Assembly (NCBI GenBank): GCA_016194705.1
Contig: JACQAZ010000010.1
Span: 166-64,165 of the forward strand
Direction of reading: 5' to 3'
Length of the DNA: 64,000 bases
Source: Elusimicrobiota bacterium
GTDB lineage: Bacteria; Elusimicrobiota; Elusimicrobia; UBA1565; UBA9628
The notes beneath the pieces are model-generated. The model had not been told where the DNA came from, did not search any database, and worked only from the letters and a program-made list of their open reading frames with translations. Shown here in pieces: positions 26,971 to 60,497 of this stretch. Both the position numbers and the translations under genes were made by a program. How positions within the stretch are numbered: position 1 is the first letter of the stretch; every line of letters starts with the position of its first letter.

Positions 26971-27337
26971 GGCGGCGCTCATCCCCCTGGCGCTGCTGTG
27001 CGCCGCGACGGCCGCCGAGCGCGTCGTCGGCGTGGGCCTGGTCATCAAGATCGTCGGCCGCTATCCGGCCGTCGAGTCGCTGGTCCCCGGCGGCCCGGCG
27101 CTGCGCGAGGGCAACCTCAAGCCCGGCGACCGCATCGAGGGCGTGGCCCAGGGAGACGGGCCTTGGGTCGACACGGCCGGCCTCAAGCTCGAGGGCGTGG
27201 TCGCCCTCATCCGCGGCCCCCGCGGCAGCTCGGTGCGCCTGCGCGCCGTGCGCGTCGAGGAAGACGGCGGCCGCCGGCAGATCGTGGTCGCCCTCAAGCG
27301 CGACGTCCTCAAGGACGAGCAAGGAAAGAAGCGATGA
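26960..27337 (+). CDS. small secreted PDZ-domain protein
   Basis: A signal peptide is followed by a PDZ-like GLGL-type fold ([37 protein letters not shown]). Confidence 0.65.
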   Translation: MSLKAALIPLALLCAATAAERVVGVGLVIKIVGRYPAVESLVPGGPALREGNLKPGDRIEGVAQGDGPWVDTAGLKLEGVVALIRGPRGSSVRLRAVRVEEDGGRRQIVVALKRDVLKDEQGKKR

Positions 27338-27849
27338 CCCCGGATTTCGTCGCCATCGATTTCGAGACGGCCGACCAAGGGGCGGACAGCGCCTGCGCGG
27401 TGGGCCTGGTCAAAGTCGAGGGCGGAAGGATCGTGAGGAGCGAATCCCACCTGATTCGCCCGCCGCGGCGGACCATCCTGTTCACCTATATCCACGGCAT
27501 CGAGTGGCGGCACGTCGCCGACAAGCCCGTTTTCAAGGACGTGTGGCCGCGCGTTGCTGAGATGCTCAGCGGGGCGCGCTTCATCGCGGCTCACAACGCG
27601 CCCTTCGACCGCGGGGTCTTGAGTGCCTGCTGCGCCGCCGCCGGCGTGCGCGCCCCCTCCCAGCCGTTTGTCTGCACGGTGCGCCTCGCCCGCAAGGCGT
27701 GGAATCTGCGGCCGACGAAGCTTCCCAACGTGTGCGAGCACCTCGGCATCGCCTTGAACCACCATGAGGCGCTCTCGGACGCCACCGCCTGTGCTAAAAT
27801 CGTCCTGGCCGCCCTTGCCGAAGGCAAGGGCGGCCTCACGGAGGCTTAA
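27334..27849 (+). CDS. DEDDh-family 3'-5' exonuclease (DnaQ / RNase T-like)
   Basis: FVAIDFETA (Exo I), AHNAPFDRGVL (Exo II) and HEALSDATA (Exo III with the catalytic His) are present. ATG 27334 sits in an ATGA overlap. Confidence 0.85.
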   Translation: MTPDFVAIDFETADQGADSACAVGLVKVEGGRIVRSESHLIRPPRRTILFTYIHGIEWRHVADKPVFKDVWPRVAEMLSGARFIAAHNAPFDRGVLSACCAAAGVRAPSQPFVCTVRLARKAWNLRPTKLPNVCEHLGIALNHHEALSDATACAKIVLAALAEGKGGLTEA

Positions 27850-50468: not shown

Positions 50469-50542
50469 CCTCGCCACCCTGGCATAGTTAAGGATTCCTG
50501 TTATACTTAGGATGTTCGGGCCCCGCCGCCCGCCAAGCATCC

Positions 50543-52489
50543 ATGAAACCCCTCTTCCTTCGCCTGTTGCTGGTCTTTTCGCTGGCTCGGCCGGCCGCGG
50601 CGGGCAACCGCGCGACTCCCGAGCTTCCCGGCGAAGGCCAGGCCGTCCCCGGCGGAAAGATCGTGTCGCCCGGGACCCCTCCGGTCCAGATCGATCTCAA
50701 AGTAGCGCCCCTCAATACGATCGCGGTCGACGCGGTCAAGACCGTCGAGACACCGGCCGCCGATGCGGCGCTCTCGCAGGTCCAACTGCCGGTCCTCGAG
50801 CCGGCTCCGGGCCTGATCGTCGGCCCCAAGCCGGAGGCGTCGCCGGAATTCACGCCGCCAGCACGGGGCCCGGCGCCGTCGGTCGATGGGCAGGTCGTCT
50901 CGGGCCGCGCGCAATTCGACCTTCAGACCGCCAAGTACGCGCCGGCTCCCCCGGCGCCTTCCTTTACAGGCTGGCTTTCGGCTCTGTGGACAGGCGCGGA
51001 CAAGGTCCCGGACTGGCCCGGCAAGGCCGGCGACAAGGTCAGGCTCGACGGGAAGACCTATGTCCTAGAACGCCGCATCGGCGAGGGCAACAGCGCGATC
51101 GTCTGGAGGGCTCGGAACGGCGGCCATGACGTCGCGGTCAAGTTCATCCACCCGGCGTTCAAGAACATACCGCAATACGGCGAGGAGGTCTCGGCGCTCG
51201 AGGCCATCGCTCATACCGACATCCGCCACGCCAAGCTCCTGGCCAAGGGCGCCGACGGCCTCGTGCTCGTCAAGGAGTTCGTCGACGGCGAGAAGGCCAG
51301 CGAGCTCCTGGCCCGAGGCGCCCTCCTCCGCAGCCAGCGCGAGGGTTATATGGAGTTGGCCGCGCGCCTGATCCGAATCGGCTACACCGGCGACATCCAC
51401 CCCAACAACCTGATCTGGGAGAAATGGAGAAGCCGCTACGCCTTGGCCGACGTCGGCGGCTTCGAGTTCGGACGGCCCTGGGCGGTGCTCTCGCAGATAC
51501 TCGAAGGGCCCCCGGTCAAGAGCGGTGAGGTCAAAGCGGTGGAGTTCCTTTCCGGCCTGCGCGGCAGGCTCGGGCCAGACTCCGACGGCTGGCGGCGGGT
51601 CCAAGACGACGCGGCCCAGACCCCCGCCTTGGCCCGGCATCTCGCGGAACTATCCGCCTACGACCGGAGTCTTAAACCCGCGCCGCGGCTGCGATTGGGG
51701 CCGGCCAAGGAGGAGGCGGTCTTGAGCAACGCTTTGGTCTCGGCCTCGGAGTTGCGCAAACGCCTGGGCTACGATCCACTTTTGGTCAAGCCCCGTCACA
51801 TGCTTCATGGCGACGATCCGGGCAAGCTCAACACCGTGGTCTTCCAGATCGACCCCAATGGGATGGACTCCGTCGTCGTGAAGATCGCGGAAAAGGACAT
51901 CATCCGACATGAGCTCGCCATGCGCCGCATCGTCAGGCGCTTCTTCGGGCAGCTTTTTCGAACGCCGGGGGCGCTGGCCATCGACGGCGGGCATGAATCC
52001 TACATGGTGATGTCGCTGGCAAAAGGCTCCAAGAGCTACTCCTCTGACGCGATGGACCTCGAGCACAGGGTCGCCATGGCCATGCTCTCCCAGACATTCG
52101 GCCTTTACGACGTCAACCAGGGCAACGTGCTCTCCCTCTCGAAATCCGACGTAGCTCTCATCGATTTCGAGCAGGCCTTCGGCCGGCGCGCGCCGCTGGT
52201 CTCGCGGCTCCCCGACGAGCGCATCGCCCAAGAAATGCCGTGGGTGAGCCTCCACGAGAAAAACCGCATCGAGGATTACCTGCCCGCAATCAAGTCCTGG
52301 CGGGGGTTGTTTCTCAAGCCCGAAACGCAGGTCGAGCTGGTCCAAATCCTGCGCCAGAGCGGCTTCTCCGACAAGGAGATTCCGGGCTATCTGGCGCAAT
52401 TCCGCGCCAACGCGGACGATCTCGAGTGGGCCATACAGAACGACGTGGAATTTGCTAACTTGTTCGTGGAAAGGCGCTCCTCCAGGTGA
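50543..52489 (+). CDS. secreted protein with two tandem protein-kinase-like (Kdo/WaaP/RIO-like) domains
   Basis: A signal peptide is present (MKPLFLRLLLVFSLARPAAAG). Domain 1 has IGEGNSAIVWRA (Gly loop), VAVKFIH (beta3 Lys), GDIHPNNLIW (catalytic loop) and ADVGGFEF. Domain 2 has DVNQGNVLS and ALIDFEQAFG. Confidence 0.6.
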   Translation: MKPLFLRLLLVFSLARPAAAGNRATPELPGEGQAVPGGKIVSPGTPPVQIDLKVAPLNTIAVDAVKTVETPAADAALSQVQLPVLEPAPGLIVGPKPEASPEFTPPARGPAPSVDGQVVSGRAQFDLQTAKYAPAPPAPSFTGWLSALWTGADKVPDWPGKAGDKVRLDGKTYVLERRIGEGNSAIVWRARNGGHDVAVKFIHPAFKNIPQYGEEVSALEAIAHTDIRHAKLLAKGADGLVLVKEFVDGEKASELLARGALLRSQREGYMELAARLIRIGYTGDIHPNNLIWEKWRSRYALADVGGFEFGRPWAVLSQILEGPPVKSGEVKAVEFLSGLRGRLGPDSDGWRRVQDDAAQTPALARHLAELSAYDRSLKPAPRLRLGPAKEEAVLSNALVSASELRKRLGYDPLLVKPRHMLHGDDPGKLNTVVFQIDPNGMDSVVVKIAEKDIIRHELAMRRIVRRFFGQLFRTPGALAIDGGHESYMVMSLAKGSKSYSSDAMDLEHRVAMAMLSQTFGLYDVNQGNVLSLSKSDVALIDFEQAFGRRAPLVSRLPDERIAQEMPWVSLHEKNRIEDYLPAIKSWRGLFLKPETQVELVQILRQSGFSDKEIPGYLAQFRANADDLEWAIQNDVEFANLFVERRSSR

Positions 52490-54657
52490 CACCCATGATC
52501 CCCAGGAAAAAGACGAACCTCTTTCTCGCGGCCGCGATCCTCGTCCTGAACTCATGGGCTGGGGCCGCCCCCGAGCCCGATCCCTCGGCGCCGGTGGTCG
52601 GCCAGCTCGTGGCCCGCATCCTCGAGCAGAACCACTACCTCCATCATCCGCTGGATGCCAAGACCTCCAAGGAGCTCCTGGCCAACTATCTCGAGATGTA
52701 CGACTACAACCGCATGTTCTTCGATAAGACCGATGTCGACGAATTCACCGCCCGCTACGGCGACGGCCTTGCCGACCGCATCAAGGAAGGCGACGTGGCG
52801 CCCGCCTACGAGATATTCGACCGGTTCCTCAAGCGGCTCGAGGAGCGCACGGCCTTGGTCGCCGAGCTCACGGCATCATCCATGACCTTCACGGCCGATG
52901 AGTCGATCGTCGTCGACCGCCACGAGTCGGCGTGGGCGGCCAGCGCCAAAGAGGTGCGCGAGCTCTGGCGCCTTCGGGTCAAGTACGAGCTCCTGCAGGA
53001 GAAGCTCAACAAGACCAAGCCCGAGGAACTCGCCAAGACCGTCAACCTGCGCTACGAGCGGCTCCTGCGCAGCTACAAGGAGTACGATTCGGGCGACATA
53101 CTTCAGAACTATTTGTCGGCCCTGACGCGCACGTTCGACCCGCATTCCGACTACATGGCCGCCCCGCAGAAGGAGAATTTCGACATCAGCATGCGGCTCT
53201 CCTTGGTCGGCATCGGGGCCGTGCTAAGATCCGAGGACGGCTACGCCAAGATCGTCTCGCTGGTGCCGGGCGGGCCCGCCGACAAGGACAAGCGCCTCAA
53301 GCCCAACGACAAGATCGAGGCCATCGCCCAGGGCGACGGCCCCTGGATCGAGGCCGTCGGCATGAAGCTCGACCGCCTCGTGCAGATGATTCGCGGGGAG
53401 AAGGGCACGACCGTGCGCCTGCGCGTGATCCCGGCCGACTCCATCGATCCCGGCACCCGGGTCGCGATCTCGCTGGTGCGCGACGAGATCAAGCTGACCG
53501 ACCAGGAGGCCAAGGCCAAGATCATCACCCTGCCGCTCTCGGGCGGCAAGACCGCCAAGGTCGGCGTCATCGACCTGCCGTCCTTCTACGCGGACATGAA
53601 GTCGGTCATCGAGGCCAAGAGCACCACTCGCGACGTCGAAAAGCTGCTGATCGCGCTCAAGAAGAACAACGTCGACGGCGTCATCCTCGACCTGCGCCGC
53701 AACGGCGGGGGTTCGCTCTCGGAGGCCGTCAGCCTGACGGGCCTCTTCATCCCCGAAGGACCCGTCGTGCAGGTCAAGGACGCCCGCGGCATCACGAAAG
53801 TCCTGCGCGACACCGAGCCCGACATGCTCTACAACGGCCCGCTCATCGTGCTGACCTCGAGGGCCTCGGCCTCGGCCTCGGAAATTCTGGCCGCCGCGCT
53901 CCAGGATTACAATCTGGCCGTGATCGTCGGCGAGAAGAGCACGTTTGGCAAGGGCACGGTGCAGTCCATCATCGAGCTCTCCCAATATCTCCCGGGAGCC
54001 CTGCGCTCGTACAAGCCGGGCGCGGTCAAGCTCACGATCCAGAAGTTCTACCGCGTCTCCGGAGGCTCGACGCAGAACCGCGGCGTCATCCCGGAGATCC
54101 ATTTGCCGAGCCTCGAGGACTCCATGGACATCGCCGAATCCTCGCTCAAGAACGCCATGCCCTACGACGAGACTGAAGCCGCCGCGTTCTCGCGCACGGC
54201 GGGCCTAAGCCTTCCCAAACTCAAAGAACTGGCCCGGCTCTCGGCGGAACGCGTGGCCGCGAACGCCGAATTCGCCTACGTGCGCGCCGACATCGAGCGC
54301 TACAAGAAGCAGAAAGAGGAGAAGACCATCTCTCTGTCCGAGAAGAAGCGCTTGGCCGAGAAGAAGGCCGACGAGGACCGTGCGTCGGCTCGAAAAAAAG
54401 AGCGGGCCGCCCGCAAGGAGAAGGAACTTGTGGCCCAAGAGATCACTTTGGAATCCATCGACGGCGCCGAGCCTCCCAAAAAGTCGACCGCGGCGGTCAC
54501 CATGGAGGCCGAGGGTCCCGACTACGAGAAGGCGCCGCCGACCCCGGATTACGTCCTCGAGGATGCCGGGCACATCCTCGCTGACATGATGGGGGCGCTG
54601 CCGTTGTCCTCGAGCAACAACGCCGCCAAAGCCACGCCGGACACCTACATCCCCTGA
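52486..54657 (+). CDS. prc: S41 carboxyl-terminal processing (tail-specific) protease
   Basis: A signal peptide is followed by a PDZ domain and an S41 catalytic region (RRNGGGSL...[11 protein letters not shown]...STFGKGTVQ), with a charged C-terminal extension. The GTG start sits in a GTGA overlap with the upstream gene. Confidence 0.85.
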
Positions 54658-54677: not shown

Positions 54678-57221
54678 ATGAATCTCGATCGATGGACCAC
54701 CAAGTCGCAGGAATGCCTGCAGGCGGCCCAACGGCTGGCCGAAGACCGCGGCCACCAAGAACTCGGCGAGGAGCACCTGCTCAAGGCACTGCTCGAGGCC
54801 GACGGCGGCGTCGTGCCCGAGGTCGTGCGCCAGGCCGGCGCTGATCCGGCAGCTCTCCTAAAGGGACTCGATCGCGAGCTCTCGCGCCGGCCGCAGGTCT
54901 CCGGCGGACAGCTCTACCCCTCCGCGGGGCTCTCAAAAGCCCTGCGCCGGGCCGAGGACCGCATGAAGGCGATGAAGGACGAATACCTCTCCGTCGAGCA
55001 CCTGCTCTTGGGCCTGCTAGACAACGCCGGCGCCGGCGCCAAGGTCTTCGCGGAGGCGGGGCTGACCCCGGACAAGATCCTGGCCGCCTTGGCCAAGGTA
55101 CGCGGGGCCCAGCGCGTGACTTCGTCAGAGCCCGAAGGGACCTTCCAGGCTCTCGAGAAGTATGGGCGCGACTTGACCGCGCTCGCCCGGCGCGGGAAGC
55201 TCGATCCAGTCATCGGCCGCGACAACGAGATCCGCCGCGTCATCCAGGTCCTCTCGCGCAAGACCAAGAACAATCCCGTCCTCATCGGCGAGCCCGGCGT
55301 CGGCAAGACGGCCATCGTCGAGGGCCTGGCCCAGCGGGTGGCGGCCGGCGACGTTCCCGAAGGCATCAAGGACAAGAGGATCGTCGCGCTCGATCTCGGC
55401 TCTCTCGTGGCCGGCGCCAAGTTCCGCGGCGAGTTCGAGGAACGCCTCAAGGCCGTCTTGAAGGAAGTCTCCTCCAAGGAGGGCCAGATCATCCTCTTCA
55501 TCGACGAGCTCCACACCTTGGTCGGCGCCGGCGCGGCGGAGGGCGCCATCGACGCGGCCAACATGCTCAAGCCGATGCTCGCGCGCGGCGAGTTGCGCTG
55601 CGTCGGCGCCACCACCCTCGACGAGTACAAGAAGCGCATCGAGAAGGACGCCGCCTTGGAGCGCCGCTTCCAGCCCGTGACGGTCGGCGCCCCCTCGGTC
55701 GAGGACACCATCGCCATATTAAGAGGCCTCAAGGAACGCTACGAGGTCCACCACGGCGTGCAGATCCGCGACTCGGCCCTGGTCGCGGCGGCGGTCCTCT
55801 CGGACCGCTACATCGCCGACCGCTTCCTGCCCGACAAGGCCATCGACCTCGTCGACGAATCCTGCAGCCGCCTGCGCATGGAGATCGACTCGATGCCGCT
55901 CGAGCTCGACGAGACCGAGCGCAGGTTGCGCCAGCTCGAGATCGAGGCCATGGCGCTAAAAAAAGAGAAGGACGCGCCCAGCCGCGAGCGGCTCTGCGTC
56001 ATCGAAGCCGAGCTCTCCGCCCTCAAGGAGAAATCGAAGAAGCTGCGGACCCATTGGGAGATGGAAAAGAAATCCATCTCCGCGCTGCGCGAGCTCAAAG
56101 CGAAGACGGACGAGCTTAAGACCGAAGAGACCCGCGCCGAGCGCCAAGGCGACCTCACTCGCGCGGCCGAGATCCGCTACGGGAAGATTCCCGAGCTGGG
56201 CAGGAAGATCGAGGAGGCCCAAAAGGAACTCGCCAAGCTGCAGTCGACGCAGAAGCTGCTGCGCGAGGAAGTCGACGAGGAGGACATCGCGTCCGTCGTC
56301 TCGCGCTGGACGGGAGTCCCCGTCGAGCGGCTTCTCGAGGGCCAGACGCAGAAGCTGCTGCGCCTCGAGGAGGTCCTCCACGCGCGCGTGGTGGGCCAAG
56401 ACGCGGCGGTCAAGGCGGTCGCCGACGCCGTGCGCCGCGCGCGCTCGGGCCTCTCGGATCCAAACCGGCCGCTGGGAGTCTTCCTTCTGCTTGGTCCCAC
56501 GGGTGTCGGCAAGACCGAGCTCGCCCGCGCCCTGGCCGAGTTCCTGTTCGACTCCGAGAAGAGCATGGTGCGCCTCGACATGTCCGAGTACATGGAGAAG
56601 CACGCCGTCTCGCGCATGATCGGCGCGCCTCCGGGCTACGTCGGCTTCGAGGAAGGCGGCCAGCTCACCGAGGCGGTGCGCCGCAAGCCTTACTGCGTGC
56701 TGCTCCTCGATGAGATCGAGAAGGCCCATGCCGACGTCTTCAACGTGCTCCTGCAGGTCATGGAGGACGGCAGGCTCACCGATGGTCAGGGCCGCACCGT
56801 GAATTTTAGGAACGTCCTCCTGTTGATGACGTCGAACCTGCCCGCCGCCGAGCTCAAGGTCCGCTTCCGCCCGGAGTTCCTCAACCGCGTCGACGAGACT
56901 TTGATCTTCCACGCGCTTTCCGAGACGCACCTGCGCAAGATCGTGGACATCCAGCTCGCCGCGGTGGCCAAGCGCCTGGCCGAGCGGCGCATCACGCTCA
57001 CCCTGAGCGACGACGCCAAGGACTTTCTGGCCAAGGAAGGCTACGACCCGGCCTATGGGGCCAGACCCTTGAAGCGCGCCATCCAAAAGAGGATCGTCGA
57101 TCCCCTGGCCAGGCTTCTGCTGACCGGCGAGGTCAAGGACGGCGACACGATCGCGGCCGCCGCGGGCCGCGAGGGACTCTCCTTCAAGTCCGTCAAGAAG
57201 AAGGAAAGCAAAGCGGCTTGA
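54678..57221 (+). CDS. clpB: ATP-dependent chaperone ClpB
   Basis: An 847-aa protein with two AAA+ modules (GEPGVGKT; GPTGVGKT) and a coiled-coil middle domain. Confidence 0.95.
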
Positions 57222-59974
57222 ACGCCAGCTGGCTGCTCGTACTAGCGCTCTCGCCGGTCCGCGCGGCTCAAGTCTCAACGGGCACCGCGCGACTGGTCCT
57301 CATCGAGCCCGCCTCCATCTCGGCCGGCACGATCCTCGACGCTCCGCTCGAGCGTCTCCTGCGCCTCTCCTCGTCGAGCGTCCGTTTGCTCGACATCCAG
57401 TCCGTGCCCTGCTACCATTCGGGCACCGATTACCGACTGCGCCTGCCGGCCGCGCCTGGGCCCGCGGACGAAGCCGTTTTCTCTACCATGTCGGCGGTCG
57501 CGCTCGAGGCCGAGTCCGAGGCGGCCCTGATTTTTCCGCCCGAGCCGGAACTGATCTCGGGCCTGCAGACACTCGCCGAGGATCCCGCCAGCTACCGCGT
57601 CCCTTGGACGGTGCGCACCGCGACCAAGACCTTGAGCCTCATGCAGATGCGCGGGCCGAGCGGCGAGGCGCTGGTCACGGTCCAGCTCGATCCCAGCGCG
57701 GGAGAGGGCGCGCAATGGCTGCCGGCGGTCGCGCAGTCCTATCGCCTGAGCTGGAGAGGGCGCGAGGTTTCCATCGTGCTCGTGGCCAAGCTGCACGGCG
57801 GCCTCGGGCGATTGGCGACGGTGCTGGCGCGCGAGCAAAAGAGGGGCCCCGTGCTCGGAGTGGCGCGCAGCGACGCGTTCGGCTCCAGCTTCACCGAGCC
57901 CAAGGGGCGGGCGCTGGCCGAGAAGCTTGAGAGCCTCGGGCTCAAGTACTCCGCGGCGGGCTCGGCCGAGGTCCGACGCTGGCGAGAGGTCCAGCAGTAC
58001 CGGCGAGAGCGTCCCGAGGGCATTGAGTTCCTGTCGGCCAACCTGGTCTACGCCTCCGCGCCCGCCAAGACCATCCTTCCCGACCACGCGGTCGTGAGCG
58101 TCGGCGGCATCAAGCTCTGCCTCGTCGGCATGACGCCGCCCGAGGCCGCGAAGTACCTCGGACAAGGGGGCCTTGCCGACGCGGCGGTCGCCGATCCCGT
58201 GGAAGCCTTCCGCTCCAAGGCCGTCTCGTATCGGCGGGAATGCGAGCTCGTCGCCATCCTCGGCGCGCTCACACCCGAGGCGGCGCGCCTGCGCTTCGAG
58301 GCGCTGGGCGCCGATCTGATCGTCGGCGAGGATTACGAGTCGCCCTACCACCAGGGCGAGCGCCCTGAAAGCCACGTGCACCGGGCCCGGGTCTACGACT
58401 TCGACCAACCCCTCTGGATCATGAAGGCGTGGGACGAGACTCTGAACATCTTGGAAGTCGGCGTGCGCAAGGAGGGCGAGGCGCGCTCGGTCGACATCAT
58501 CGAACGCCACGTCAGCCTCGACGAAAGCGTACCGTGGGCTCTTGGGATTCCCGTCTTCGCGCCCGAGACCTACGCGACCGCGCTCTCCACCGAGCCTCCG
58601 ATCCTGCCATCGGCGCGGCGCATCCTGCCGGCGTCCGCGGGAGAGGGCGGATTCCCGCAGATCACGGCCGAGAATTTCTGGACACTGGCGGCCGGGATGC
58701 TCGCGGATTCGACTCGCTCCGAGGCGGGCCTCTTGCGCGTGCTCCCGCTGCCGATCCAAGAGGACACCGACATCCCGGAGTCCGTCGTGCGGGCTTGGCT
58801 CTCCGACGAGGACCAGGCCGTGGTGCTCTACCTCAAGGGCTCGGAACTCAAGGCATTGCTGGCAGAGGCCAAGGTGCAGTCCGAGCGCAGGGCGAAGGGA
58901 CTTCCCAAGGGCTCCAAGATCGCCTTCACTGCCGGCGGCGTCGATCGTGGGGGAAAGATCCACGGCGTGCCAATCGAGGACCGGCAGGTCTACCGCGTGG
59001 CCACGACCCAGGTGCTCGCCGACGCGCTGGGCCTCTCACCCGGCCGCGATCCTCAGCCCGTCGGACGCACGGCCGACGAGCTGATCCTGGAGGGCTTGCG
59101 CAAACGACGCGGCGCGCAGCCTTCGGCCTATCAAGGCTGGATGCAGGGCCAGCCGGTCTCGAGGCGCGGGCTTTGGCGGCTCGATTTTCGCGACGTGGGG
59201 CTCAACATCCAGAACACCTCGGTGGTGCGCGACGACGCCTTCGACGCGGTCCCCAACGCGCGCATCCAGGGCTTCAATCAATATACCATCGGCGGCTTCC
59301 TCAAGACCGACGCGGACTATTTCTACGAGCCCTACAAATGGTCCAACACCGTCGAACTCGAATATGCCAAGACGCGCCTGCGCCCGCGGCAAGGCCCCCC
59401 CGTCACCAACACGCCGTCCAACCGCATCATGGCGCTCACAAGTGCCACGCGCCGCGCGGGCGCCATCAAACAGGCCTGGCTGGCCCAGTCGTGGGGCCCC
59501 TCATTGGGCTTCCAGTTCGACAGCGAGTTCGATCCCGCCCCAGGCCTGCCGCGCAAGCAGGTCTACAGCGCCTTCCCCGGCGTCGAGTTGTACGACGGGA
59601 CCTTCGTGCGCAAGTGGGAGCTCACCCTCAACCTCAAGCGCGATCAGTCGCGCGACCCGCCCAACACCCAGGGCGGCCTGCACACGCGCATGCTGGTCTC
59701 CAAGGACCTCGGCAAGGCGCCGGTCAACCTCCAGGGCGAAGTCTACGCCAACTATTTCTTCCTGACCCGCCGCGACACGATCCAGGACCTGCGCTTCGAG
59801 GGCGACATCAACTTCAAGCTCAAGGTCCCGATCCGGAAATACCTGACGGTCGCCCCGTTCCTCGACCTCTACGCCTTCGAGCTCAAGCTCAGGCCGCTCG
59901 CGGGCTACTCCATCATGACCGGGATCTCGATCGGCTTCTCGCGTCTCTGGAAGCCGCAGTATGAGAGCTTCTAG
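57218..59974 (+). CDS. large secreted protein (918 aa) with a C-terminal beta-barrel-like region ending in an aromatic residue; putative outer-membrane protein
   Basis: A TTG start sits in a TTGA overlap with the clpB stop. A signal peptide is present ([19 protein letters not shown]). The C-terminus ...[13 protein letters not shown] fits the terminal-Phe OMP signature, and the last 350 aa have alternating hydrophobic residues. Confidence 0.6.
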
Positions 59975-60497
59975 CCTAGCCGCTTTGCTCCTGCTCCTCC
60001 CCGCCGCGGCCCATGCCGACGCCGCTATGCCCATTCTGTATGTCTTCGCGCCGATCCTCGTTCTCTCATTTTTTCCCGTCGTCTTCATCGAGGCCTTGCT
60101 CTACCGGAACCGCCTGGCGATCTCCTTGCCGGCGGCGCTCTCGTCCTCGCTCAAGGCCAACCTCGCCTCCACTTTGGCCGGCCTCCCGCTGGCCTGGATC
60201 ATCGTGACGGGTTTGGGCGGCTTGGTCCACCCCGGAGGAGCCTTCGACCCCGGAGGCTTCAGCACCGAGCTGCTCTGGCGCGGACGCTACGGCGAGTTCT
60301 TCTTGGTGGTCCTGCTGCAGCTCGGGCCGGCGTATTTTGTCTCGGTGTGGATCGAGCGCGCGGTGCTCGTGCAGTCCTTCCAATCCGTGGACAAGGACAA
60401 GCTCCTGTCGCTGAGCTGGGCCGCCAACACGGCGAGCTACGCGTTTTTGTTCGTGCTCTGCTTCCTCCTGCCGGCCGTTTTCTCCCCCCGCGGCTAG
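59961..60497 (+). CDS. hypothetical membrane protein (178 aa, 4-5 TM helices) with a signal-like N-terminus
   Basis: The ORF overlaps the upstream stop by 14 nt. Strongly hydrophobic helices are present. Confidence 0.55.
   Translation: MRASSLAALLLLLPAAAHADAAMPILYVFAPILVLSFFPVVFIEALLYRNRLAISLPAALSSSLKANLASTLAGLPLAWIIVTGLGGLVHPGGAFDPGGFSTELLWRGRYGEFFLVVLLQLGPAYFVSVWIERAVLVQSFQSVDKDKLLSLSWAANTASYAFLFVLCFLLPAVFSPRG

Follow-up and report, generated by a model that had tools for sequence, protein, structure and literature searches.

Kinase folds that are exported and kinase folds that stand in tandem are both already known. Fam20 works in the Golgi lumen, which is supplied with ATP, and CotH in a spore coat that is assembled in the mother cell; JAK, with its JH2-JH1 arrangement, and the plant tandem kinase proteins carry two kinase folds in one chain, the N-terminal of which is often degenerate and the C-terminal intact. 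In bacteria, kinases would be expected to function in the cytoplasm and not beyond it, and it is against this expectation that the gene described here is of interest. It lies in a 64,000-nucleotide stretch (the window) of contig JACQAZ010000010.1 from an uncultured Elusimicrobia bacterium (GenBank assembly GCA_016194705.1, positions 166 to 64,165 of the forward strand), where it is present in a single copy and encodes a 648-amino-acid protein that carries a predicted Sec-type signal peptide and two kinase-fold domains. The gene for a periplasmic tail-specific protease, Prc, begins at its stop codon or a few nucleotides beyond it. Our preferred reading, to which we assign a probability of roughly 0.55, is that the protein is an exported pseudokinase-kinase tandem acting in the cell envelope, with its second domain an active atypical kinase.

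A co-expressed periplasmic partner is a known theme for proteases of the Prc/CtpA type, as in Escherichia coli Prc/Tsp with NlpI and Pseudomonas aeruginosa CtpA with LbcA, and the Prc encoded here shares their four-domain build and likewise bears a signal peptide. NlpI and LbcA, however, are tetratricopeptide repeat (TPR) lipoproteins encoded elsewhere in the genome, whereas the linked gene at this locus is kinase-like and its linkage is clade-specific; we know of no kinase-fold partner described for this group of proteases.

The kinases nearest to the protein differ from it in several respects. Domain 2 is 12-13% identical in sequence to members of the PI4K-II/actin-fragmin kinase/CtkA group, in the PI3/4-kinase-like branch; no member of the present family reaches the threshold of PF00454, and the HxDDPGKLNT loop is unique to it. 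PI4K and actin-fragmin kinase are cytosolic, and CtkA requires type IV secretion (PMC5536186), unlike the 648-amino-acid protein with its predicted Sec signal peptide. Compared with Bud32/PRPK, RIO, APH and the Hanks-type kinases (PknB/YabT), domain 1 falls below the Pkinase score and matches in the N-lobe only; its C-lobe is short, its catalytic residues are lost in many relatives, and its most conserved motif is non-catalytic. Fam20 and CotH are not the closest folds to domain 2, and domain 2 belongs to neither sequence family. Unlike those of JAK and the plant tandem kinases, the two domains are not paralogous and come from different branches of the superfamily, in a protein that is bacterial and predicted to be exported.

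No description of this tandem family was found in Pfam, NCBIfam or the literature searched. Nor did these sources contain the combination of two unrelated kinase folds, probable Sec export in a diderm, the HxDDPGKLNT loop and tight coupling to exported hydrolases, here kept as a core gene of one bacterial lineage. The value of the finding hinges on the activity of domain 2 in an extracytoplasmic setting. If domain 2 is active there, the protein would be a bacterial counterpart of Fam20 and CotH in a compartment thought to be without ATP; it would reopen the question of a periplasmic phosphoryl donor and might add a regulatory layer over Prc proteolysis. If it is inactive, the protein would found a new family of pseudokinase adaptors for exported hydrolases. 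Either outcome gives a new protein family, and a rare one, with about 100 representatives in 1.84 billion proteins.

Two kinase folds behind a predicted signal peptide

The open reading frame proposed in the initial annotation holds: its ATG at 50543 is the first ATG, GTG or TTG past an in-frame stop, so that no upstream extension is possible. The kinase motifs quoted there are all present, at residues 180-185 (GEGNSA), 197-200 (VAVK), 283-292 (GDIHPNNLIW), 303-306 (DVGG), 523-530 (DVNQGNVL) and 540-544 (IDFEQ). The product is 100% identical to protein HY077_04885 from the metagenome-assembled genome (MAG) of an Elusimicrobia bacterium and contains no cysteine. A word-indexed search returned 47 homologues of about 650 amino acids, all hypothetical and none with a Pfam domain.

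An AlphaFold2 model built with a 35-sequence alignment has a mean predicted local distance difference test score (pLDDT) of 81 and a predicted template modelling score (pTM) of 0.75. Every 10-residue block between residues 150 and 648 reaches a pLDDT of at least 88, two short loops excepted, and the two domains are modelled at that pTM as one rigid body. Both are confidently modelled as protein-kinase-like folds, in keeping with the two kinase-like domains originally proposed.

Domain 2 shows the bilobal fold of the protein-kinase-like superfamily: five strands and alphaC make up the N-lobe, and the C-lobe is helical. The order of its elements (beta1-beta3, alphaC, beta4-beta5, alphaE, catalytic loop, beta7-beta8 with DFE, helical C-lobe) fits that of a compact atypical kinase in the predicted structure. 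Its structural neighbours include actin-fragmin kinase (11.9) and Helicobacter pylori CtkA (11.3), followed by PI3K, Vps34 and PIKKs (about 10-11), CotH (10.2), HipA/HipT (9.8-9.9), Fam20C (9.8), Bud32 and RIO (9.1) and WaaP (8.8). The catalytic set of the superfamily is also present (beta3 Lys, alphaC Glu, catalytic Asp, Asn and DFE Asp), and the domain is marked by HxDDPGKLNT (422-431), K447, E457, R461, D523-x-N-x-G-N528, D541-F-E543 and E564-x-P-W567. Nearly all of these positions are invariant in the 35 aligned homologues, namely H422, D425, G427-K-L-N-T431, K447, E457, R461, D523, N525, G527, N528, D541-F-E543, E564, P566 and W567, together with A449. K447, E457, D523, N528 and D541 in particular are retained by all 35 homologues, whose overall identity is about 40-50%, and at 31 of 31 species-level loci. 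Because the Lys/Glu pair, the catalytic Asp, the metal-binding Asn and the DFE Asp are invariant, domain 2 is predicted to be active. The segment RxPDERIxxEMPW, equivalent to the activation loop, is extremely conserved as well. In an alignment of 15 distant relatives, too, Lys, Glu and the two Asp residues are invariant (K69, E80, D151 and D170 in its first sequence); in the wider domain-2-like set the catalytic residues are kept in most members, and the Lys and catalytic Asp are replaced in some.

Sequence profiles recover little of this similarity. Domain 2 of the window protein matches no Pfam or NCBIfam model and none of the PADLOC models, and searches of PDB sequences, by single sequence and by profile, gave nothing significant, the best being the catalytic loop of RIO2 (E = 0.13). 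Across family members, domain 2 has scattered sub-threshold matches to TCAD9, DUF4135, RIO1, APH, PI3_PI4_kinase and ABC1. PF00454 (PI3_PI4_kinase) leaves the window protein unmatched and hits one of 19 members below threshold, at E = 0.012; the resemblance to that family, as modelled, is structural only.

Domain 1 is kinase-like in its own right. Structural scores for the full model exceed those for domain 2 alone with Bud32 (11.2 vs 9.1), YabT (9.9 vs 7.9) and APH(3')-VIII (10.9, at 22% identity, vs 7.8), and GAK, TTBK1, PDK1 and PknB (9.8-10.3) are matched by the full model only. When PDB sequences are searched by profile, residues ~170-300 find Fyn, HCK, Src and PknA, aligning with their N-lobe, hinge and alphaE at E-values of 1.4e-6 (Fyn) to 3e-6. 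Pfam Pkinase (PF00069) scores 22.9-24.6 bits, below its gathering threshold of 31.7, in a match confined to the N-lobe (profile positions 1-95 of 263), and finds any match in 3 of 16 members; NCBIfam likewise gives sub-threshold N-lobe matches only. Domain 1 has both the superfamily fold and, in the window protein, a complete catalytic set: a Gly-rich loop (180-185), K200, E215, D284, N289 and D303, with GDIHPNNL as the equivalent of the HRDLKPEN loop (D284 to N289) and D303 as the DFG Asp. Across species this set is intact at 17 and degenerate at 13 of 30 loci. The invariant features of domain 1 in the homologues are instead E215 and the motif LRxRLGPDSxxW (R340, R342, L343, G344, W350). Compared across homologues, then, the catalytic residues are fully conserved in domain 2 and often degenerate in domain 1.

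The initial annotation gave both domains protein-kinase or Kdo/WaaP/RIO-like signatures. Domain 1 is Bud32/RIO/APH/Hanks-like and domain 2 PI4K-II/actin-fragmin-kinase/CtkA-like; the Kdo/WaaP part does not stand. Membership tests for RIO (PF01163), Kdo/WaaP, CotH and Fam20 all came out negative. An internal duplication was rejected on an hhalign probability of 2.4% between the two domains; since they are not detectable paralogues, the protein is a fusion of two kinase-fold branches. Membership among the anti-phage defence kinases was also rejected, the context being one of housekeeping genes and the matches fragments only: the PADLOC PD-T4-6 and MADS mad6 models align with N-lobe fragments at 21-30 bits, the cut-off for MAD6 being 460 bits.

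We consider Sec export of the protein a strong inference from its N-terminus, MKPLFLRLLLVFSLARPAAA followed after the predicted cut by GN, which has a positive n-region (K2, R7), a hydrophobic core of about 8-12 residues and an A-x-A site. A core of this length would not suffice to anchor the protein in a membrane. The positive charges precede it, as they do in signal peptides that are cleaved, and the rest of the protein has no further hydrophobic stretch. In the alignment, full-length homologues almost universally begin with M-[R/K]-x, 10-14 hydrophobic residues and A-x-A, and conservation continues past this site as GQ[V/I]E.PVS or QVRVQGAPEV. The signal peptide of the initial annotation is thus supported, with its n, h and c regions and A-x-A kept throughout the family. 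These judgements were made by inspecting the alignment, because a simple rule under-calls: it passed 24 of 46 sequences, an Arg in the c-region breaking the run. By a crude rule, 32 of 67 representatives of the wider family begin with what resembles a signal peptide and lack any transmembrane segment between it and the domain; 7 further ones have a signal peptide and then transmembrane segments, and these are predicted to be of sensor topology, with a cytoplasmic kinase-like domain. Prc, a ceramidase-like protein that takes its place in some species, and a 918-amino-acid protein encoded nearby also have signal peptides.

Between the signal peptide and domain 1 lies a low-complexity linker (P 17%, A 15%), and residues 14-137 have pLDDT values below 50. 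Its length and sequence vary among homologues, and FD at 125-126 is invariant.

Gene order and junctions with exported hydrolases

The downstream gene was described as a periplasmic S41 tail-specific protease, and this is confirmed by its domains, by TIGR00225 and by its signal peptide. It encodes a full-length Prc/Tsp with Pfam matches to TSP_NTD (8e-50), PDZ, Peptidase_S41 (2e-46) and DUF3340 (1e-29), and scores 285.2 bits against TIGR00225 (cut-off 218.6), which places it among the Prc/Tsp peptidases (MEROPS S41A). The motifs SASASE and FGKGT begin at residues 461 and 487. The E. coli-specific model PRK11186 gives 589.7 bits, below its cut-off of 825.

The GTGA overlap between the kinase-like stop and a Prc GTG start, on which translational coupling had been proposed, does exist in the sequence. 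The GTG is nevertheless probably a mis-call, because an ATG at 52495, 5 nucleotides after the kinase-like stop, fits the spacing and start codon (a gap of 4-6 nucleotides and ATG) of 11 orthologous loci; the junction is tight with either start, and its spacing is compatible with coupling in both cases. No terminator-like site was seen on the coding strand between the two genes. In the 74-nucleotide gap 5' of the kinase-like gene there is a sigma-70-like match, one of 4 sites that a consensus scan of the region found against 0.8 expected, which is suggestive only of a promoter there.

We compared gene order at 32 loci obtained by scanning one genome per GTDB species. In 17 of them Prc comes next, in the same orientation as the kinase-like gene and downstream of it, and 16 of these junctions could be resolved: 11 have a gap of 4-6 nucleotides, 3 a 4-nucleotide ATGA overlap, and the remaining two gaps of 10 and 22 nucleotides. 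In 2 of the 32 Prc is adjacent and divergent, the kinase-like gene being inverted between the PC4-like gene and Prc (L004/L005, 7732-12022, and L006), and the two genes cannot be co-transcribed there. In 6 the gene downstream of the kinase-like gene is instead ceramidase-like (PF04734), with a signal peptide; where resolved, this junction is a 4-nucleotide overlap, ATGA in L002 and GTGA in L029. The loci recorded for these six species are L002 (12010-13461), L024, L026, L027, L029, L030 and L033, and the catalytic residues of domain 1 are lost in all six. The last 7 species have neither partner, their neighbours being unrelated (adenosine deaminase, a TPR protein, alanine aminotransferase, an ABC ATPase) or the contig too short. 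On these counts an obligate partnership with Prc is rejected. The pair forms a tight, conserved junction in one clade, and a functional linkage to Prc through processing or quality control, as first suggested, is not established, given the six species with a ceramidase-like gene instead. A sphingolipid link by way of the aminotransferase at L032 was rejected too, since that enzyme is of the alanine-aminotransferase type and not a serine palmitoyltransferase.

The Prc-linked genomes have a larger block in common: HemE, CNNM, the PC4-like gene, the kinase-like gene, Prc, optionally ClpB, and the gene for the 918-amino-acid protein. Over full-length matches Prc is 54-62% and ClpB 72-73% identical, and the kinase-like protein 41-49%.

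Relatives of domain 2 and the possible functions of the protein

All named homologues of the protein come from Elusimicrobia/Elusimicrobiota, the others being labelled just 'bacterium', and the 32 species loci are likewise Elusimicrobia/Elusimicrobiota or unclassified 'bacterium'; judged from these labels, the core family appears to be restricted to Elusimicrobiota. A HMMER search with a domain-2 profile against 1.84 billion cluster representatives returned 103 sequences at E <= 1e-3, 46 of them at E <= 1e-30. Among these are larger proteins in which a domain-2-like domain is fused to GGDEF, FHA or SpoIIE/PP2C, to DnaJ with RamC_N (the N-terminal domain of RamC), or to HisKA/HATPase with RamC_N. 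Most fusion members keep the Lys, Glu, Asp and DFE, and the equivalent of Asn528 is lost in the GGDEF clade. Because relatives of domain 2 are fused to FHA, PP2C and RamC_N, its ancestral chemistry, by domain co-occurrence, would be the phosphorylation of protein Ser/Thr. A word-indexed search with the alignment of distant relatives yielded just two proteins, from one Cyanobacteria-labelled MAG and one Elusimicrobia MAG. Giant relatives that end in a domain-2-like domain were considered as polymorphic toxins, and this was rejected: they are of sensor type, with transmembrane segments and HisKA/HATPase, SpoIIE or RamC_N.

Four metagenomic relatives (P0074, from locus L037, P0078, P0082 and P0100) join a Sec-type signal peptide and a Pro/Ala-rich linker to a pair of GGDEF-like domains, with SGEEF in the second, and to a domain-2-like domain; no further hydrophobic segment was found in them. 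To our knowledge an exported diguanylate cyclase would be unprecedented, and such signal-peptide GGDEF fusions, lacking any transmembrane segment, would have to be taken as a caution as well as a lead. If a periplasmic kinase is real, they would point to a broader toolkit of extracytoplasmic nucleotide signalling.

The protein folds like members of the protein-kinase-like superfamily and would be expected to work like them. In the reading that we prefer, it would be a Sec-exported envelope protein from an undescribed, Elusimicrobiota-centred family of that superfamily. After cleavage of the signal peptide, the flexible Pro/Ala-rich linker would carry the rigid two-domain body. Domain 1, a pseudokinase in many relatives, would most probably be a regulatory or docking partner through the invariant LRxRLGPDSxxW surface, and domain 2 would act as a phosphotransferase, most plausibly on Ser/Thr residues in a protein of the periplasm or envelope. 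Its gene would be co-transcribed, and probably translationally coupled, with that of the next exported hydrolase, Prc in the window and a ceramidase-like enzyme in another clade, giving stoichiometric co-expression. The narrower claim that domain 2 is an active periplasmic kinase that uses exported or leaked ATP, or another donor, and that it modifies envelope proteins and thereby controls the co-translated hydrolase, is one that we hold to be rather unlikely; it would mean that a diderm lineage carries out true nucleotide-dependent phospho-signalling beyond its cytoplasmic membrane.

Several observations weigh against this reading. The prevailing view is that ATP is absent from the diderm periplasm; the locus gives no hint of a source of it, and no phosphoryl donor or substrate was identified for the kinase-like protein. 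In domain 2, HxDDPGKLNT, modelled at low pLDDT, stands where a Gly-rich loop would usually be. In some distant relatives the domain-2-like domain follows a transmembrane segment and stands beside HisKA/HATPase or SpoIIE, so that it is not intrinsically extracytoplasmic. Linkage to Prc, finally, is not universal; it is clade-specific, as six species carry the ceramidase-like gene in that place, and it may in part be inherited gene order among fairly close relatives, because the block common to the Prc-linked genomes is larger than the pair.

The scarcity of periplasmic ATP would be no obstacle to a catalytically silent pseudokinase scaffold. Both domains would then be mere binding modules, whether or not they hold a nucleotide, and would assist, inhibit or chaperone the exported hydrolase made alongside them, much as NlpI and LbcA serve as adaptors for Prc and CtpA. 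This is the best-placed of the alternatives and yet, in our estimate, a clear second, with perhaps one chance in five. It would agree with the degeneracy of domain 1 in 13 of 30 species, where the non-catalytic R340, R342, G344 and W350 are invariant all the same, and with the occupation of the same tightly coupled slot before two different exported hydrolases, Prc and the ceramidase-like protein; the neighbouring 918-amino-acid protein is itself a pseudo-enzyme. However, the Lys, Glu, Asp, Asn and Asp of domain 2 are strictly invariant across homologues of about 40% identity, the usual signature of an active enzyme. The known Prc/CtpA adaptors, moreover, are TPR lipoproteins and not kinase folds, and 7 of 32 species have no adjacent hydrolase, with the gene inverted in 2.

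If domain 2 is active, its target might also be a lipid or glycan of the envelope and not a protein, for instance a head group like that of LPS or a lipid of sphingoid or ceramide-derived type. The PI4K-II match of domain 2 and the ceramidase-like coupled partner in six species are in line with such a substrate, and the conservation of RxPDERIxxEMPW suggests a single defined one. Against this, the FHA, PP2C and RamC_N fusions point to phospho-Ser/Thr chemistry, the protein has no membrane-binding element besides its cleavable signal peptide, and the ceramidase assignment consists of the Pfam N-terminal domain and a weak NCBIfam match, so that we regard a lipid or glycan kinase as improbable.

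The initial annotation had also raised a secreted effector or toxin, a kinase that would work inside another, ATP-supplied cell as do CtkA, HopBF1 and HipA-type toxins. CtkA, CotH, HipA and Fam20 are among its structural neighbours, it has a predicted signal peptide, and its sequence has changed faster than those around it (41-49% identity, as opposed to 54-73% in full-length matches of Prc and ClpB). The housekeeping synteny, however, lends this little support: the gene is single-copy in a conserved, vertically inherited block (HemE, CNNM, PC4-like, Prc, ClpB) across 32 species, its GC content is normal, and genes for secretion systems, immunity or mobile elements are missing from its immediate neighbourhood. 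PADLOC yields weak, generic N-lobe matches only, and CtkA itself needs a type IV secretion system and not Sec (PMC5536186); an effector is thus very improbable. Less probable still is a cytoplasmic signalling kinase whose N-terminal stretch is a membrane tether or an annotation artefact, for although ATP would be available there and distant relatives combine domain-2-like domains with GGDEF, FHA, HisKA/HATPase and DnaJ, translation cannot begin before ATG 50543, homologues conserve the amino-acid sequence of the N-terminal peptide, its core of 8-12 residues between K2/R7 and A-x-A is too short to span the membrane as an anchor, and no other segment of the protein is hydrophobic.

Neighbouring genes

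The positions of the gene, its parts and its neighbours are collected in Table 1. The region has an even GC content of about 65%.

Table 1. Features of the kinase-like locus, in coordinates of the window
Feature	Position	Strand	Basis
PC4/YdbC-like gene, 152 amino acids	50010..50468	+	Pfam PC4, E = 6e-12
Candidate sigma-70-like promoter (CTGGCA, 17-nucleotide spacer, TATACT, TG before -10)	50479..50507	+	consensus scan
Predicted exported tandem kinase-like protein, 648 amino acids	50543..52489	+	open reading frame; 47 homologues
Predicted Sec-type signal peptide, residues 1-20; predicted signal peptidase I site with AAA before and G after the cut	50543..50602	+	sequence inspection
Pro/Ala-rich low-complexity linker, residues 21-150, predicted disordered	50603..50992	+	pLDDT, composition
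Domain 1, residues ~160-378, Bud32/RIO/APH/Hanks-like kinase fold	51020..51676	+	model, profiles
Domain 2, residues ~395-648, PI4K-II/actin-fragmin-kinase/CtkA-like atypical kinase fold	51725..52486	+	model, conservation
Prc/Tsp tail-specific S41 protease, 723 amino acids, signal peptide	52486..54657 (likely start ATG 52495)	+	Pfam, TIGR00225
ClpB disaggregase, cytoplasmic	54678..57221	+	Pfam Clp_N, AAA, AAA_lid_9, AAA_2, ClpB_D2-small
Exported protein, 918 amino acids, degenerate UshA/CD73-like N-terminal half	57218..59974	+	PDB profile, synteny

Downstream of Prc, the ClpB and 918-amino-acid frames had each been said to overlap the gene before it. This is so for the latter, whose TTG at 57218 overlaps the ClpB stop; between Prc and ClpB there is a gap of 20 nucleotides. 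ClpB stands between two genes for exported proteins, Prc and the 918-amino-acid protein. Since many related loci have no ClpB at that position, Prc being followed directly by the 918-amino-acid gene, it looks like an insertion into an older block of envelope genes.

The 918-amino-acid protein is kept next to Prc in at least 11 related loci. Its N-terminal half matches 5'-nucleotidases in a profile search against the PDB (E = 2.5e-8), and the metal-ligand motifs are replaced (GD by GG/T, GNHE by SASE, GGHS by IADD), which would make it a pseudo-nucleotidase. Its C-terminus, ending in WKPQYESF, resembles an outer-membrane beta-barrel signal. A hydrophobic open reading frame of 178 amino acids (59961-60497), with a signal-peptide-like start and no Pfam or NCBIfam match, overlaps the end of this gene by 14 nucleotides and may extend the same operon.

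On the other side, the PC4-like gene encodes single-stranded-DNA-binding-type domains and lies 5' of the kinase-like gene in most Prc-linked loci, with no obvious functional relation to it. A second PDZ/S41-like gene occurs elsewhere in the window, at about 26998-27849; the PDZ region of Prc is 44% identical to it over 107 amino acids, which suggests a CtpA-type paralogue.

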